This document shows, one piece after another, positions 26,972 through 52,852 of a stretch of 64,000 bases of DNA. Source of the DNA: Candidatus Babeliales bacterium (GTDB lineage: Bacteria; Babelota; Babeliae; Babelales; JANWKD01); the NCBI GenBank assembly GCA_963762115.1, contig CAVXJH010000006.1, forward strand, positions 256,001 through 320,000, in the 5' to 3' direction. Each line of letters begins with the position of its first letter. Within the stretch, counting starts at the first letter, position 1. Under the pieces are notes generated by a model, which was given only the letters and a program-made list of their open reading frames with translations, had not been told where the DNA came from and made no database searches. Both the position numbers and the translations under genes were made by a program.

Positions 26972-27535
26972 ATGACAGAAAACCCCAGGGTTTTAAACCT
27001 GGGGATGAATGTCATCAAATGCGCGAGCGAAGCAAAAATGTAAATTTTTGCGAAGTGAGGTTAGTTTTGTCATACTAATTGACATGACAAAGAAATATTG
27101 GCACGGAGCGCATACAACTCATAGGCATATGTATCATATAGTTTGGTTACCTAAATATAGAAAAAAAGTATTAGAAGGCAAAGTTAAGAGCAGGTTAGAA
27201 GAACTTTTGCGAGAATGTGCGGAAATTAATGCATGGGAAATTCAAGAACTAAATATTCAGATAGACCATGTGCATCTTGTAATACAATTACCACCAAGTG
27301 TGAGTGTGAGCAAGGCCGTTCAATTACTCAAGGGAATTTCAAGTAAAATGCTCAGAGCTGAATTACCTGAAATAAAGAAATTTTTGTGGGGTAACGATTT
27401 TTGGGCAGATGGATATTTCTCTGAAACATTTGGACAATGTTCAGAAGAGACAATTCTCAATTATGTTAGAAATCAATAAAAAGCTTTCATCTCGTGCTTC
27501 TAAATCCACGGCTTTTAAGCCGTGTGTTGTTTAAT
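26972..27535 (+). mobile_element. IS200/IS605-family element, tnpA only
   Basis: Subterminal hairpins aaaccccagggttttaaacctgggg (~26980) and aaatccacggcttttaagccgtgtg (~27502); exact ends approximate. Confidence 0.8.
27084..27479 (+). CDS. tnpA: IS200/IS605 Y1 (HUH) transposase
   Basis: YHIVWLPKYRKKVL, DHVHL, FWADGYF, YVRNQ. Confidence 0.95.
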   Translation: MTKKYWHGAHTTHRHMYHIVWLPKYRKKVLEGKVKSRLEELLRECAEINAWEIQELNIQIDHVHLVIQLPPSVSVSKAVQLLKGISSKMLRAELPEIKKFLWGNDFWADGYFSETFGQCSEETILNYVRNQ

Positions 27536-43918: not shown

Positions 43919-45049
43919 TTATTTTCTGATGTATATATTGCCTGAACTTGTTTTAAAAGTTTTTAAAGGGCCATCTTTACCGATTGTACCTTTAATATTT
44001 TTCTTTTCTTCTTTTCCTGTAACAGGAACATCTGATTTACATTGACCAAAAGTTGTTGAAGCTTCTATCGTTGCATCGGGATAATCACCTAAAGTATAAA
44101 TATTATTACCAAAGCTTGTTTCTGCTGTAACTTCTTCTTTTATTGACGCTAGTTTATTATTGCCAGAGGAATTTTCTACTGTTGCACTACCTTGGATATG
44201 AGATATATCGTTTTCGCCAAATGAGGTTTTTGATGAAACATCACCGTCAACATTGATAATTCTGTTATCACCTGAAGAAGTTTCTACAGTTGCATTGCCT
44301 TCGATATTTTCAATATGATTTTTTCCAAATGATGTTTTGGCATTAACATTGCCTTTAATATGTGAAATACTATTTTTACCAGAAGAATTAGTTGCTGATA
44401 CATTACCTTTTATTCTTTCTAAGGTGTTTGTTCCAAAAGAATTATTTATAGTCGTATCACCGTTTATACCTTTTAAGGTAATGTTTCCTGAGCTTGTTTT
44501 TGTTTTTTCAATAGTATCATCAATATTTTCTGCAGTGATTGAGCCATGTTGCGCAAGAAGTAATTTAATGAATGTTTTTTTAGGAACTTTAAGAGTATAA
44601 CTTCTACTTGCTTTGCAGTCTTTCGTTTTATAGACAGTTTTTATAAAAGCATTTTTTTCATCTATATTTAATTCTGAAGAAACACATTCAAGGTTGCCAT
44701 CATTACTTTCAGTTTCAATTAAAAGTTCTAATAATTCTTTGTCATGACCTTCAATAGTAATGTTATTAGGTTTGGCAGAACAATCATCCTGCTCTACATC
44801 ATTAATAATAACACGACCATTAATAATGTCGCCAAAAAAACTACCAGAACTATTGTTGTTGTTATTATTTTCATTTTCAACATGTAACGTGCCACCTGAT
44901 GCAAAAACGAATTCTCTTATTTCTTCTTTATGAACATGTTTTTTTTCTGTTTTTTGAGCGCTGTCAAAAGGCCATATGCACATTGAATTTTGTGTGCATA
45001 AAATAATAAGAACAAGTGAAATAAGTATTGTAGGTGATTTTTTAATCAT
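43919..45049 (-). CDS. exported DUF4097-like beta-strand repeat protein
   Basis: Repeats I.G.V.A.TS[SF]G.N.I; LKVPK; terminal KTSSGNIYIRK. Confidence 0.8.
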   Translation of the reverse strand: MIKKSPTILISLVLIILCTQNSMCIWPFDSAQKTEKKHVHKEEIREFVFASGGTLHVENENNNNNNSSGSFFGDIINGRVIINDVEQDDCSAKPNNITIEGHDKELLELLIETESNDGNLECVSSELNIDEKNAFIKTVYKTKDCKASRSYTLKVPKKTFIKLLLAQHGSITAENIDDTIEKTKTSSGNITLKGINGDTTINNSFGTNTLERIKGNVSATNSSGKNSISHIKGNVNAKTSFGKNHIENIEGNATVETSSGDNRIINVDGDVSSKTSFGENDISHIQGSATVENSSGNNKLASIKEEVTAETSFGNNIYTLGDYPDATIEASTTFGQCKSDVPVTGKEEKKNIKGTIGKDGPLKTFKTSSGNIYIRK

Positions 45050-45939: not shown

Positions 45940-47328
45940 CTACTCTTTACCCACATTTAGTTCTTTAAATAAAAGATAAGCTTGTGTAATGGCTTCTAGC
46001 CGAAATAATCCCTGCCACAAAACTTTTGCACCAGGATCTTTATCGTTTTTCCTGCCAAGAAAACCTCCTAATTTTGCTATCATTTGAGTTGCTTCTTTAA
46101 CAGAAAAAGATTTGGGGGGCAATGTAAGAGTTTTATGATGCGTGCAATATAACGCATCAGCTTCATCGGTTGTAAGAATTAAATTACATGGGGCATCAGG
46201 TTTAATTCTTGCAAGATAAGTGATATAAATTAAACGCCAGGCAGCAATTGAGTAAACAGCCAAGGTTCTTTTTAGGTTATCAACCGATTCCATTTGAAAT
46301 TTTTCTATGCGACAACCTTCTTTTAAAATATAATGATAGCGTTCAATGAGCCAACGTTTTGAGTAAAGGGCAATAAGCTTTTCAGCTTCTTCCAATGATT
46401 GAACTTTAATCGTAGTAATAAGTCGCCATACTATTGGATCATTTACTGAGTTGTCATATTCTATTTCTTGCACATAAATCGCTGTTAAATGTATGGTTGG
46501 TAATTTTTCATTTTTTCGATTTAAAGGAGAACAAATTTCGACTTCTTTGACTCTAATCGCTAACTTTGCAGTTCTCTTAGAATGAGTTTTTGTACGTTCT
46601 AATTCTTTCGTTATAACGCCTAATACTGATTGTTTTTCCAGCAATTCAAAGAGACGCTCTTCTTCGTTCTGTATATTTCTATTTTGTACAAGATGAATGA
46701 GCAAATCACTGTTTAACCGTCTTTTTGCGATCAATAAATCATAAATATCGGCACCACCATCACCTATAAATAAATAGCTTTTATTAATAGGAAGCTTTTT
46801 TTCTATTTGATAAATTGATTCAATCCAATTATAAGATTCTTTTTCCTTTGTGGGCAACCTTAGCTTATGTTTTTTTTTGCCAAAATCTTCTTTATTACGT
46901 ATCCAATACTTTTGATTTATTAGCCCTAATGGAATAAAATTTTCACTAAATACATACGTATTTTGAACTTTTATTCCAAGTGAATTTTTTGTATTAGAAA
47001 GAGTTCCTAACCCTGAAGTTTTTTTAAGATTTTTAAAAGATGCATCCATGCCATCGCTAACAATAATGACTTTGCCTTCAACACTTTCAGCTCTTTCTGC
47101 GGTCGCTTGATAATGTCCTGCGAGAATATCCTGTTCATCAATTTCTGTTGTGGCAAGAAAACGATAAGCACCTTTTGCTTGTGCATTTTCTCCGTTGCAA
47201 GCTTGTAAAATGCTTGCTGATGGGCTATCGGCAACGGCCTCTAGAAGTATTCTAACTCTTTCATTTCTGCGTTTATCTTTTAATGACATACGATTAGTCT
47301 CATTTGCTGCCCACAATTCTTTAATCAT
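45940..47328 (-). CDS. IS4-family transposase
   Basis: DKRRNER, GAYRF, EKESYNW, YSKRWLIERYHYILK (YREK), LGGFLGRKNDKDPG. Confidence 0.95.
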   Translation of the reverse strand: MIKELWAANETNRMSLKDKRRNERVRILLEAVADSPSASILQACNGENAQAKGAYRFLATTEIDEQDILAGHYQATAERAESVEGKVIIVSDGMDASFKNLKKTSGLGTLSNTKNSLGIKVQNTYVFSENFIPLGLINQKYWIRNKEDFGKKKHKLRLPTKEKESYNWIESIYQIEKKLPINKSYLFIGDGGADIYDLLIAKRRLNSDLLIHLVQNRNIQNEEERLFELLEKQSVLGVITKELERTKTHSKRTAKLAIRVKEVEICSPLNRKNEKLPTIHLTAIYVQEIEYDNSVNDPIVWRLITTIKVQSLEEAEKLIALYSKRWLIERYHYILKEGCRIEKFQMESVDNLKRTLAVYSIAAWRLIYITYLARIKPDAPCNLILTTDEADALYCTHHKTLTLPPKSFSVKEATQMIAKLGGFLGRKNDKDPGAKVLWQGLFRLEAITQAYLLFKELNVGKE

Positions 47329-47401
47329 TTTTTACTTTTCTTTTTTTGATATATTAACTCTGTATCTCGTTAATTATAGTAAAAATGTGGGTAAAGAGTA
47401 G
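45940..47401 (-). mobile_element. IS4-family (IS50/Tn5-like) insertion sequence
   Basis: Perfect 19-bp TIR CTACTCTTTACCCACATTT (45940-45958 / 47383-47401); duplication CGTATATG at 45932-45939 and 47402-47409. Confidence 0.95.
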
Positions 47402-47569
47402 CGTATATGCACCACACATCATGATGCTCCGCATCATTCTTTCGGGTGCACGACGCACTACCGGACTAACATATATTTATAAATTGTCATTCTGAGCCCT
47501 GCATAGCTGTTTACTCCGCCATAGTGATTGTGTTAAAAGTCAAATATTTTTTAATAAAGCTAAACAATA

Positions 47570-48511
47570 TTAAGCTTTACATAATTCACCTTTTTTTAGT
47601 AAAGAATTAGCAATCACAATAAGTTTATGCATAATAGCTACGATAGCTATTTTAAAAGGTTTTTTAGAAGTTATTAAACGATCGTAAAGTTCCTTTAATG
47701 GGAGATGATATTTAATAGTTGTTAATGCATACATATAAAGCATATTTCTTGGAATAGTTCTTCCACCTCTGATGAATTTTTTACCCTTATAACTTCCACT
47801 TTCATTCTCATAAGGACAAACACCAATGAGTGCTGATACTTTTTTATTACTTATTTGACCAAGTTCAGGAACGAATGATAATAATGTTGCAGCTGAAGTT
47901 TTGCCTATTCCTGGAATTGACTCCAAAATTTTTGATTTTGTATTTAATTTTTCATCTTGCTGAATTAAATCTTGTATCTTTAAATCAATTGATTTGATTT
48001 CGCACTCTAAGATTTTGATAAATTTCTTTATACTTGATGCATATAATGCATGAGATGGATGTTTAGATCTTGTTTTTTCGGCAACTAAAAATTTTACCAA
48101 GTCATTTTTACGATTGACCAAAGCTTGTAATTTTTCTTGATTTTCGCTTTTGTTCATTATCTCATAATCAGGAGAATTTTTAGAAGCAAATTCAGCAATT
48201 TTTCGAGCATCAATTTTATCCGTTTTGCTTTTGCAGCCACTAGCAACAATATAGCCTTTTATTCTTCTTGGATCGATGATCCAAAGATAATAACAATTTT
48301 TTTTTAATATTCGAGCAAGTAATTTTTCATACCCACCAGTTGCTTCGCATGCAATTTGTTCGATATCATATTTAACTAATTCTTTAATGATCTCCGTTAT
48401 TCCAACTTCTGAGTTTGATACTTTTAAAGATTTTCCTATTGGATGGATATAAACATCTAAAGTGTTTTTTGAAATATCGACACCTATAAATACTTTTGAT
48501 ATATTTTTCAT
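47570..48511 (-). CDS. IS110-family recombinase/transposase
   Basis: GVDISK, CEATG, KTDKIDA (DEDD), SIPGIG, NESG. Confidence 0.97.
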   Translation of the reverse strand: MKNISKVFIGVDISKNTLDVYIHPIGKSLKVSNSEVGITEIIKELVKYDIEQIACEATGGYEKLLARILKKNCYYLWIIDPRRIKGYIVASGCKSKTDKIDARKIAEFASKNSPDYEIMNKSENQEKLQALVNRKNDLVKFLVAEKTRSKHPSHALYASSIKKFIKILECEIKSIDLKIQDLIQQDEKLNTKSKILESIPGIGKTSAATLLSFVPELGQISNKKVSALIGVCPYENESGSYKGKKFIRGGRTIPRNMLYMYALTTIKYHLPLKELYDRLITSKKPFKIAIVAIMHKLIVIANSLLKKGELCKA

Positions 48512-48514
48512 AAA

Positions 48515-48715
48515 TACCTCTGGCTTGTAGACATGCGAGATCGTATGTACTTGATACGTCTCTAGTGATTGTTCGAGGTCATTTTTGTATAAGCTGATAG
48601 TCTCAAACTATGACACGGTCCTTTGAGACCAAGCTTGACACGAGATCTATCAGCTTCTCAAACAATTAATTTCAAAACAACTGATCATAAATTAACAAAA
48701 TTTAGCTTTAAAATC
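48515..48715 (-). ncRNA. IS110 bridge RNA (5' end approximate)
   Basis: Two stem/internal-loop domains; guides match the element's own target and donor. Confidence 0.85.
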
Positions 48716-49156
48716 ATTTTGATTTAACATACAAGCTTGCCAAGCCGGTAGGCATGGATAAGCGAAGGCTGGATTAGCGAAGCATGGGCGTAGGAATCCA
48801 GTTTATTTATAATTTTATCGAAATTATTTTATAGACTGGATCCTTACGCCATCGGCTCAGGATGACAGTTGTGATACTACGAAGTAGATTATATTAATCG
48901 CAAGTCATCGGATAAAATCAAAAATTTCCCCATTAGCAAAACTGGTGGAGGACTTTGAGCATGTAATGATCAAGTCCGACTTTTTTGCGTTAAGAGAGAT
49001 TACTAAGAGATTCCTCTCTTAGTTGCCCTTGTATTGAATATATTGGGCACGCAATATATTCATGCTTGCCCGCATAGGGCCGAAGAATATTAAAAAATAA
49101 AAAGACTGAAACAAGGCAAAATAACTTAGCAACAAAAATTTAATTAAAAATGAAGA

Positions 49157-49653: not shown

Positions 49654-50946
49654 ATGCAAACAAAAGTAAGTATTTATTATTTTTTTATTACGTTGTTTTT
49701 ATTTCCATCATTGGATGCCTATAACGCTGGAGCATTTCCCTATGCAGTGCATAAGGGTGAGATTTGGTTTTTATTAGGTGAAGATCCTCATCGGAAAAAT
49801 AATTGGACAGATTTTGGTGGTAAATCTGATCGTGCTGATAAGGATGATACGCGCTTTACAGCGGCACGTGAATTTGCAGAAGAGACTAATAATGTTTTTG
49901 GTCATACTCAAACAATGTATAAAAAATTGAGAGAAGAAGCTGGCTTTGGGTATAGAAATAAATATCGTATGTATTTAGTGCCAGTCGATTATAAGGATAT
50001 ACCAACTATTAAACGAGCGCAAAAGAATGATTTTGAAAAATCAGATTTTATATGGGTGCCTGCAGAAATTTTATTGGATACTGTGCAAAGGTCTCAAAAT
50101 GATCAAAATGTGTTTGTGAATTATGGTGGTAAAAATATACAAATTTTTCACCGGTTTGCTTGGATTTTAAGAGAATTTGATGAGGAAATTAGAAAGCAGA
50201 TTGGTTTGAGAGTTCATACGCCAGCAAAGAAACATCAAGTTATATCTTCTCAGGGTAAAAAAGCAACCGCAACATCTAGGGGGCAAAGCTATGAAGTTGA
50301 TTCTGTTTCCGTATTACCATTTGCATTTCATCAAGAGAAAATTTTTCTTTTATTGGGAAGTGAAGTTAGGGGTGCAAATTATAATCTTATGTATTCTGGT
50401 TTTGGTACGTTAGTTGATGATAATGCCTTTATTGAAGGAGTTTTTGATCCATTGATAACAGCAGGTTATGGCTTTCAGCGAACAGTGAGGGATGCTTTTG
50501 GGTCCGATAGCGCAGGGTATATTAGAATGGCTATTAAAAAAACAGGTAAAATTTCATATTATGATGGACTATTAAAGCATCTTATGTGTCTTGCAGAAAT
50601 TGAATATACCTTTATAGACTCAGCTAATAATCCTTGTCGATGGTTTGGCGCAGAAGATTTTTTAAGATGGATTAGACGCACTTCGTTTGATATTAATAAT
50701 TTTGATGATCCTGTCATGTATAATACCTTTGAAATATATCAACCTTTTGCAGCTGTTCTTAAAGAAGCTGCTGATGATGTGGAAAGAAGAATAAATGAGA
50801 CAAAAAATAAGCATTTAGCTGAGCAACAGCCAGCGCGAGCAAGAACAACGATACAGCCAAAACCTTTACAAGATGCATCATTGCAAAAAAGTTTGATGGA
50901 ATTGAATATGAAGCTAAATCAGTTGCAAAATGCTTTAAGATCGTGA
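49654..50946 (+). CDS. exported tandem Nudix-fold protein
   Basis: AGAFPY..FLLGED..WTDFGG..TAAREFAEET; second degenerate copy SVLPF..FLLLGSE..YSGFG. Confidence 0.8.
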   Translation: MQTKVSIYYFFITLFLFPSLDAYNAGAFPYAVHKGEIWFLLGEDPHRKNNWTDFGGKSDRADKDDTRFTAAREFAEETNNVFGHTQTMYKKLREEAGFGYRNKYRMYLVPVDYKDIPTIKRAQKNDFEKSDFIWVPAEILLDTVQRSQNDQNVFVNYGGKNIQIFHRFAWILREFDEEIRKQIGLRVHTPAKKHQVISSQGKKATATSRGQSYEVDSVSVLPFAFHQEKIFLLLGSEVRGANYNLMYSGFGTLVDDNAFIEGVFDPLITAGYGFQRTVRDAFGSDSAGYIRMAIKKTGKISYYDGLLKHLMCLAEIEYTFIDSANNPCRWFGAEDFLRWIRRTSFDINNFDDPVMYNTFEIYQPFAAVLKEAADDVERRINETKNKHLAEQQPARARTTIQPKPLQDASLQKSLMELNMKLNQLQNALRS

Positions 50947-51299: not shown

Positions 51300-51821
51300 T
51301 TAATTTGATCTTGGCAGGTAGTGTGATATTTGTCTTATATCACGAGTTTCACTGGTTAATCTGCCAAGCATAGCATGATATTTTTCTAAATAATTCATTA
51401 TGACTGGCTCTTGAATTGATTGTCTTTCTAAGTCGCCAACAAAAGAAGTAACGCTACCAAGGATATTATCTACGGCGGTATAAATGTTTAAGTTATATGG
51501 ATTTTTTTCTATTTCTTTAATAATAACATTACTTATTATTTGCAGGGTGAAAGTTTCTTCTTCTAAGTTTTGAGGCATACCGTTTTTCGTTAATTGCATT
51601 TCACTTAAAAGCATTTCATTAAGCGATCTAAAATTGTGTAAATTTTTAGCGACAGCTTGAGATCCTTCTTTGCCAATATCTCGTATCATCCCTACGACTA
51701 AACTAAAGATGTTTTCGGGTTCCTGTTGTTCCATTGCAATGAGTTGAGAGCTGTTATTGGCTATACAAAGTAAGATAAATAAAAAATTAAAAAATGTTTG
51801 CTTCATAGTGGTTACTCTCAC
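51300..51821 (-). CDS. hypothetical exported protein
   Basis: Signal ..SQLIA-MEQ; paralog of 51913..52464. Confidence 0.7.
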   Translation of the reverse strand: MRVTTMKQTFFNFLFILLCIANNSSQLIAMEQQEPENIFSLVVGMIRDIGKEGSQAVAKNLHNFRSLNEMLLSEMQLTKNGMPQNLEEETFTLQIISNVIIKEIEKNPYNLNIYTAVDNILGSVTSFVGDLERQSIQEPVIMNYLEKYHAMLGRLTSETRDIRQISHYLPRSN

Positions 51822-51912: not shown

Positions 51913-52464
51913 TTAGTGTAATTTGGGCATGCCCTTAGACATCATTTTGACTCTATTATCAGTGATTGTTAATTTACCAAGCATATTATAATAGTTTTCC
52001 AAATGATTTTTTATTATTGGTTCTTGCTGTGAGTTTTGTTCTAAGTCAGCAATAAAAAAGGTAATGCCTCTAACAGCAGGCCGTAAGCCACCGCTGTAAA
52101 TGATCAAATTTGTTTGATCTTGTTGTATTTTTTCAATTATTTCTTTTATATTTTTTTGTATTGATTCTGTGGTTTCTTTTCTTTTGGGAGAAATATCGCT
52201 TTCTGATAAAAGAGAATCATTTAATGCTACAATTTCATTCAGATGCGCTACTACTATATTTGATTCTTTTTTTGCTTTTTGCAATCCCATTAGCATAGAA
52301 AGAAGTAGTTGAGGTTGATTTTCCATTGACATGAGTTGGGAACTATAACTTCCTGCAACAAGAAACACAAGTAAGAATTTTAGTGATGTTGGCTTCATTA
52401 TATAGTTTACTTTCATTTTTTTAATTTGACCTGTCATAACTATTTGTGGAGCGTAGATTGTCAC
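51913..52464 (-). CDS. hypothetical exported protein
   Basis: Signal ..SQLMS-MEN; shares DLE..S.QEP.I.N.LE.Y..MLG.LT; true start probably an internal Met. Confidence 0.7.
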   Translation of the reverse strand: MTIYAPQIVMTGQIKKMKVNYIMKPTSLKFLLVFLVAGSYSSQLMSMENQPQLLLSMLMGLQKAKKESNIVVAHLNEIVALNDSLLSESDISPKRKETTESIQKNIKEIIEKIQQDQTNLIIYSGGLRPAVRGITFFIADLEQNSQQEPIIKNHLENYYNMLGKLTITDNRVKMMSKGMPKLH

Positions 52465-52641: not shown

Positions 52642-52852
52642 ATATATTTCAAAATTAGTTTTAATTTTAGTTTTTTTATTGGCCTTGCCAGCCCAGCCGC
52701 CGCTTATCCACGCCTTCCGGCTTGGCAAGCTTCCACCTTCGTTAAAACTTCGGCGGACAAGATGGCGGGCAGCTTTCGCTATCATTTTTCTAATGTATAT
52801 TTATTTCAATCATTAAAAAAACTGGCATGCCAGCTGAAGCTTTAGCGAAAGC

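Follow-up and report, generated by a model that had tools for sequence, protein, structure and literature searches.

The 64,000-nucleotide stretch of a Candidatus Babeliales genome analysed here (the window) carries an IS110-family insertion sequence that is very probably a complete IS621-type element; its predicted bridge RNA likely directs the recombinase to a single variant of a palindromic repeat of the host lineage. The Babelota are parasites of protists, and the host genome is small and AT-rich, comprising 1.53 Mb in seven contigs. Judged on its sequence, the element agrees with an IS621-type bridge system in its cores, catalytic residues, RNA structure, guides and handshake base. Four predicted guides are complementary to the element's ends and to the hairpin repeats in which it lies, so it likely inserts by an RNA-guided mechanism of the IS621 type.

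The ends of the element could be fixed independently of the RNA, because five near-identical copies in the genome (0–2 differences per 1,213 bp) agree exactly from one CT core to the other, 1,209 bp apart, and their sequences part beyond the cores (Table 1). A CT core is present at each end of the element and a single CT in the empty site. A preliminary description of this locus had given the circle junction as ACAATCA-CT-TGTAT and the empty target as TGGCAAG-CT-ATGG, and both stand; the extent it proposed, 47523..48742, takes in the element itself, but the last 7 bp, up to 48742, are host target. The non-coding ends measure 222 nt upstream of the gene and 45 nt downstream, which is the long left end and short right end of the IS110-group layout. 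In IS621 the joined ends read ACAGTAT-CT-TGTAT; the earlier view that the element has its own donor-left and target specificity is only partly right for the donor, since its right arm does not differ from the one in IS621 and 4/7 positions of the left arm are common to both. The target is not that of IS621.

Within the element the donor is framed by a perfect 7-bp inverted repeat, which departs from the subterminal repeat of 2–3 bp described for the IS110 group to which IS621 belongs, although in the accessible parts of the literature this length is a group tendency and not a strict criterion. The corresponding repeat of the IS1111 group measures 7–17 bp, placing the element at the lower bound, but its RNA region lies upstream of the gene and not downstream as in that group (PMC11187229; PMC11208160, in the parts accessible). 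Among loci with both ends placeable, the median repeat is 7 in 11 close relatives, 3 in 36 distant loci and 1 in 11 mid-clade loci, two of the latter being off register by one base. In the close clade these repeats span 7–9 bp, with 7.6/9 positions paired against 3.2–5.1 in slid controls, and both arms change together in some relatives; their length may owe something to AT richness and to the promoter that they overlap. Joining the ends creates the arrangement TTGACT-17-TATGTT, a match to consensus only, with its spacing counted across the junction; IS621 likewise rebuilds a sigma-70 promoter across its joined ends, according to the accessible part of its description. A scan of the linear form gave nine promoter sites against 8.8 expected and no terminators. 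The end-to-end joint is absent from the contigs of three DNA sequencing runs, which is no evidence either way.

Table 1. Features of the IS110 element and its target, in window coordinates
Feature	Position	Strand	Basis
IS110 element including both CT cores	47523..48735	-	Ends common to all five copies; 1,209 bp between cores
Left CT core	48734..48735	-	Copy comparison
Right CT core	47523..47524	-	Copy comparison
Right donor arm TGTAT, same as that of IS621	48729..48733	-	Copy and literature comparison
Left donor arm ACAATCA, 4/7 like ACAGTAT of IS621	47525..47531	-	Copy and literature comparison
Subterminal inverted repeat arm TGTTAAA, pairs with 47537-47531	48723..48729	-	End comparison
Subterminal inverted repeat arm TTTAACA	47531..47537	-	End comparison
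-35-like hexamer TTGACT, 17 bp from the -10 solely in the joined (circular) form	47538..47543	-	Sequence; putative function by analogy with IS621
-10-like hexamer TATGTT	48726..48731	-	Sequence; putative
Left target arm TGGCAAG, host repeat	48736..48742	-	Sequence; identical in 4/5 copies
Right target arm ATGGCGG, host repeat	47516..47522	-	Sequence, copy comparison
Host palindromic repeat, left part; left target is the 3' arm of a predicted DNA hairpin	48736..48765	-	Fold, -7.1 kcal/mol; repeat in 39/261 genomes
Predicted 5' stem-loop of bridge RNA, AT-rich, weak	48667..48716	-	Fold, -8.4 kcal/mol
Target-binding domain of predicted bridge RNA	48591..48656	-	Fold, alignment, covariation
Target-domain stem, AAGCTGATAG / CTATCAGCTT	48656-48647 / 48600-48591	-	Sequence
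Donor-binding domain, closing stem CCTC/GAGG over likely ribosome-binding site	48517..48579	-	Fold and alignment; ribosome-binding role putative
Left target guide (LTG) TGTCAAGCT	48632..48640	-	8/9 to host repeat
Right target guide (RTG) (GTG)TCATAG	48608..48616	-	6 nt at 48613-48608; up to 8 bp including two U-G wobbles
Left donor guide (LDG) ACAATCACT	48564..48572	-	9/9
Right donor guide (RDG) TACAAG	48524..48529	-	6/6
Donor-loop handshake base C, complementary to target position 7 (G)	48523..48523	-	Sequence; IS621 definition
IS110 recombinase, 313 aa; D12/E56/D98/D101, S238, wedge Y259/M260/L263, private Tyr261	47570..48511	-	Profile and alignment

The 313-aa frame matches PF01548 and PF02371 in a profile search, and NF033542 with 188 bits against a cut-off of 140; both the DEDD RuvC-like domain and the Tnp domain with its catalytic serine are present. 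IS621 and ISCro4 were the only related solved structures (E about 1e-32), and identity to IS621 is about 32% (98 identities, counted by hand on an alignment of residues 8-308). Across 120 homologues, D12 is kept in 119 and E56, D98, D101 and S238 in all 120; the hydrophobic wedge is also present by alignment, Y259 and M260 being kept in 119–120 of the 120 and L263 in 115, and the equivalents in IS621 are D11/E60/D102/D105, S241 and Y264/M265/M268. The residue adjoining the wedge, 261, is atypical in the window copy. The length of the protein had earlier been called compact, which it is not: 315–330 aa is usual in the branch and IS621 has 326. Protein length and the nearest solved relatives point to a place with the IS621/IS492/Piv branch. 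Only one homologue, at 70% identity, carries an organism name, Candidatus Dependentiae bacterium.

Upstream of this gene, the 222-nt left end folds more stably than shuffled versions (z -3.3). The preliminary description had proposed two domains. Folding the whole left end as a single sequence yields the first, target-binding domain but not the drawn form of the donor domain, which does arise when that domain is folded in isolation and is evident in the alignment. On 22 aligned relatives the two-domain structure, with its two stem-loops and internal loops, has 93.6% of cells paired, and 20 of the 24 pairs are changed on both sides. None of 500 shuffles scored as high and slid controls reached 28–47%, although the structure, having been drawn by hand partly from the element's own sequence and an RNAalifold result, is favoured over its slid versions. 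The GAGG that closes the donor domain (48517-48520, minus strand) lies 5 nt 5' of the start codon and is kept in relatives, and folding of the bridge RNA would likely hide this putative ribosome-binding site. An Rfam search of the left end returned no family, comparison with E. coli genomes returned chance matches only, and a plasmid search returned no sequence above 40% identity; two such plasmid regions were left out of the comparisons.

All six stem and guide strings that had been picked out in the left end were found on the minus strand where they had been placed, and the matches claimed for them were upheld: LDG and RDG pair perfectly with the junction (9/9 and 6/6), LTG matches the target at 8/9, and RTG matches over 6 nt, extendable to 8 bp with two U-G wobbles. 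LTG is complementary to the bottom-left target strand and RTG to the top-right strand. When the 222-nt left end was shuffled 20,000 times with its dinucleotides preserved, matches for the four guides arose at frequencies of 0.011, 0.113, 0.001 and 0.081, and never all four together. The register of RDG is ambiguous from sequence, since it may be contiguous, as initially described, or split in the manner of IS621 with a conserved upstream AT.

Four of the five copies lie inside one palindromic repeat, ending GGCTTGGCAAG-CT-ATGGCGGA, with the empty form TGGCAAG-CT-ATGG. There are 22 TGGCAAGCT words in the genome, 13 within the repeat and nine outside it; these nine are all empty and none is followed by ATG. 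Among the repeats with an identical left arm, all four with CT-ATGG are filled and none of the nine with CT-AC or CT-TC (Fisher p 0.0014, post hoc), and we consider it likely that the right guide decides which repeat variant is used. No empty ATGG target remains in the host genome, while an intact empty ATGG site with a single CT occurs at five places in four other genomes. The repeat itself is present in 39 of the 261 genomes of the phylum (a reversed control gave no matches) and its ACGG form in 14 of the 261; at 29 repeat loci fetched from other genomes, ATG follows the core at 3 of 33 sites. We found no description of this repeat family in the literature. Flanks of the copies agree with the target proposed at the outset in four cases of five; at the fifth copy the left flank is unrelated and the right guide alone matches. 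That insertion might instead rewrite ACG to ATG was considered and found unlikely: the filled sites read ATGG where the guide would template ATGA, and the empty ATGG form exists in the four other genomes.

Contigs of sequencing run X3 contain a sister element, roughly 97% identical, with six differing letters over 335 bp of left end and flank, at a depth of about 4. Of the three differences listed, one (48611) falls in the right guide, which would then pair with CT-ACG, and another (48639) in the left guide. This sequence hints at natural retargeting, and only hints, because of the low depth and because the flank letters adjacent to the core were not seen.

Around the element, positions 47400-47520 and 48750-49060 consist of several short palindromic repeats in a mosaic arrangement. 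Each of these recurs in partial form at other places in the genome, and different members of the set serve as targets for relatives of the element. About 4 kb from the element, two tRNA genes flank an empty target repeat that reads CT-TCCA (52700-52760; G000:C6:308701-308731). A PF01797 search for a RAYT next to the repeat gave five near-equal matches elsewhere in the genome, with no link shown; one of these IS200-type transposase matches is at 27117-27476 on the plus strand (G000:C6:283117-283476). About 200 bp beyond the right end of the element there is an intact-looking IS4/Tn5-family transposase of 462 aa (45940-47328, minus strand; NF033590 above cut-off). Four other frames had no Pfam match at E 0.001 (51300-51821, 51913-52464 and 43919-45049 on the minus strand, 49654-50946 on the plus strand); by eye, the first two are adjacent and paralogous-looking, and the last has a Nudix-like start.

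Guides and flanks were compared in relatives drawn from 261 genomes of the phylum, all of one order, of which 19 contain a relative at E <= 1e-40. The test covered 11 element types at 57–100% identity, represented by 19 loci and two further copies of the element from its own genome; one duplicate locus was left out and one site had no right flank. Ends were set by terminal motifs and the target guides were not used. Cognate pairs matched at 4.58/7 positions of the left arm, against 2.2/7 for non-cognate pairs, and at 3.35/4 of the right arm, against 1.47/4 (4.45 against 2.24 over seven positions). Permutation p values for this covariation range from 1e-5 to 2e-3 and overstate its significance, because the elements are kin. 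By target position, cognate match rates were 0.88–0.91 at positions 10–12, 0.86–1.0 at positions 6–7 and 0.41–0.62 at positions 1–5, the bulk of the signal thus lying in the right guide and in the part of the left guide next to the core; the left guide matches weakly (2–3/7) in 4 of the 11 types. The base after RDG, which corresponds to the handshake guide of IS621 and is absent from the preliminary description, is complementary to target position 7 in 11/11 types, against 0.53 for non-cognate pairs, and among distant loci, of which 38 of 93 were usable, this handshake complementarity is present at 26 of 36 distinct loci against 16 when shuffled. The target-loop handshake base T faces donor A7 in 10 of 11 types and, being invariant, is uninformative. 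LDG tracks the ACAATTA donor variant in two of the 11 types. These patterns, together with the copy boundaries and the covarying structure, support the arrangement of target loop, donor loop and CT core of IS621 type that had been recognised at the start.

Several relatives show changes of their own. Three loci of a 42% relative (L013, L025 and L113 in G013) have a right end with TT in place of CT and right guides changed to match, with left cores of TT or CT. In a 44% relative (L010, L024 and L030 in G252) the right donor arm is CATAT with a matching guide change, a natural reprogramming of the donor. The genome G110 contains two related elements at 75% and 71% to the query (L002, L112), with the same donor and different target guides. 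At L004 (G064) the left end opens with a tandem duplication of its first 16 bp. In the relative from G029, the right flank matches the right guide at 2/7 only; at this locus (L009) a 24-bp stretch of the left flank recurs in the right flank, and a rearrangement of the element end is possible.

The steps of the mechanism proposed for the element are modelled on those of IS621. The element would leave as a circle, by excision or by copying; the strandedness of the circle, single or double, is debated for IS621 itself, as far as the accessible text goes. The joined ends would build the TTGACT-17-TATGTT promoter, from which an RNA of roughly 200 nt and the gene would be transcribed. Two recombinase dimers would bind the two RNA loops as a tetramer, with LTG and RTG pairing with TGGCAAG-CT-ATG(G/A) and LDG and RDG with ACAATCA-CT-TGTA. 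Strand exchange would be helped by the handshake bases, and insertion would follow into the ATG variant of the repeat, the matching variant being by now exhausted in the host genome.

Three other explanations bear on this scheme. One holds that the guide matches are chance or relic, that the recombinase recognises the repeat by protein–DNA contacts and that the copies spread along with the repeat; it could appeal to the single repeat that accounts for four of the five sites and to the weak left-guide matches of some relatives, but it is highly improbable given that guides and flanks change in step in relatives, that the handshake bases covary, that the flanks of the copies differ outside the repeat core and that the fifth copy lies in a coding sequence whose sister alleles are intact. 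Another grants that the family works as a bridge system and takes the window copy for a disabled passenger, movable only by the protein of the other four copies. Alone among the five, this copy has Tyr at residue 261, between the wedge residues Y259/M260 and L263, where the remaining four have Cys; among the 120 homologues the residue is Cys in 115, Ser in three, Tyr in one (the window copy itself) and a gap in one, and public contigs covering the codon give Cys. Among the sequencing runs, X1 is not independent, having the host genome's own variants and flanks. A bulky Tyr beside the wedge may impair the window copy; against this, its catalytic residues and RNA are intact and a single-base assembly error at codon 261 is possible, and we regard the disabled state as possible but less likely than not. 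The earlier judgement that the element is probably active consequently fits the family, with five copies differing at 0–2 positions, better than it fits the window copy, for which the private Cys261Tyr change weakens it.

A third explanation retains the bridge system but lets target choice rest on a DNA hairpin as much as on the left guide, the hairpin, with the left target as its 3' arm, opening the site so that right guide and hairpin can suffice. It is drawn mainly from the fifth copy, which lies within and disrupts a gene for an IS481-like transposase (NF033577 is the best-matching family, at E 8e-48 but under its cut-off) at a position where three intact sister genes have a single CT. At this site the right guide matches perfectly (6/6) and the left guide at 1/7 outside the core, and a 9-pair hairpin of -7.0 kcal/mol has the left arm as its 3' side. 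The sequence CT-ATGA occurs at 774 of the 148,942 CT sites in the genome; an equally stable upstream fold is found at 8 of 773 such sites and a stricter arm rule is satisfied at 13 of 773, the three sister genes being included each time. At all five sites, moreover, a hairpin is predicted (-6.1 to -7.1 kcal/mol) in which the left arm forms the 3' side of the stem. ISPpu10 of Pseudomonas putida resembles the element in targeting a repeat, in a left arm that folds back on upstream sequence and in a tolerant left and strict right guide, but its stem-loop is conserved over 268 homologues and was tested, while that of the element is found at its own sites and not in relatives; the ISPpu10 stem-loop could not substitute for lost pairing (10.64898/2026.03.19.712850, in the parts accessible). 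Furthermore, the fifth copy is a single informative event, the other four sites are one repeat, and an ordinary half-match insertion requires no hairpin; such insertions are described for IS621, where, in the accessible text, right-target-only events were not counted, the right guide being too short. At least four left-arm bases lie in a 3' arm at 3 of 16 close-clade and 6 of 15 mid-clade sites, compared with 1,137 of 4,437 (26%) random CT sites. The hairpin explanation is on this evidence unlikely for the element. As a rule for the whole clade, a hairpin over the left arm was rejected on these counts. More speculative still, and to our minds quite improbable, is a Babelota-restricted bridge branch with specificity led by the right guide, which would parasitise palindromic repeats, retarget by single right-guide bases, insert with right guide and hairpin and almost no left pairing, and bridge the IS110 and IS1111 designs with its 7–9-bp inverted-repeat ends.

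On the preferred reading of an IS621-type bridge system, the closest comparison is IS621 of E. coli (PMC11208160, PMC11208158). As far as the accessible parts of those reports show, the two share an RNA at the left end in which a 5' stem-loop precedes the target and donor loops, a CT core, the DEDD residues with serine and hydrophobic wedge, handshake bases, the right donor arm TGTAT, palindromic-repeat targets and tolerance of one left-guide mismatch; for the junction promoter of IS621 the element has a candidate. They differ in protein length (313 and 326 aa), in target and in the right guide, which in the element pairs over 5–8 nt. ISCro4/IS622 (PDB 9t56; E 1.9e-32) belongs to the same family with the same layout and, according to the accessible part of its report, is 88% identical to IS621 and active in human cells, whereas the element is known from its sequence; the accompanying screen of orthologues in human cells obtained product from only 18 of 72 (10.1101/2025.05.14.653916). 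Longer right guides, repeat targeting and natural retargeting are already described in the accessible literature, which we drew on further (10.64898/2026.08.31.748434; PMC13626964), and bridge RNAs have been predicted in 85.7% of catalogued IS110-group elements. No IS110 description was found among the matches listed for Babelota or Dependentiae, though the supplements of 10.1101/2025.05.14.653916 could list a relative, and words specific to the clade were absent from seven supplementary files of PMC11208160, some of them available only in part. The element is thus an ordinary, well-supported addition to a large known family in which readable guides are the norm.

Its significance lies accordingly in adding one more candidate to a large pool of bridge recombinases, most of whose screened orthologues are inactive in human cells, and in the natural experiment that a single genome provides, where filled ATG and empty ACG or TCG repeats set out a single-base rule at the right guide. 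Relatives at 57–75% identity supply ready pairs of guide and target, and the analysis has exposed a palindromic repeat family in 39 of the 261 genomes of the phylum. The fifth copy represents a natural insertion by the right arm only, a class left uncounted for IS621; if a hairpin is able to stand in for pairing by the left guide, DNA structure would need to be considered when off-targets of bridge editors are predicted.
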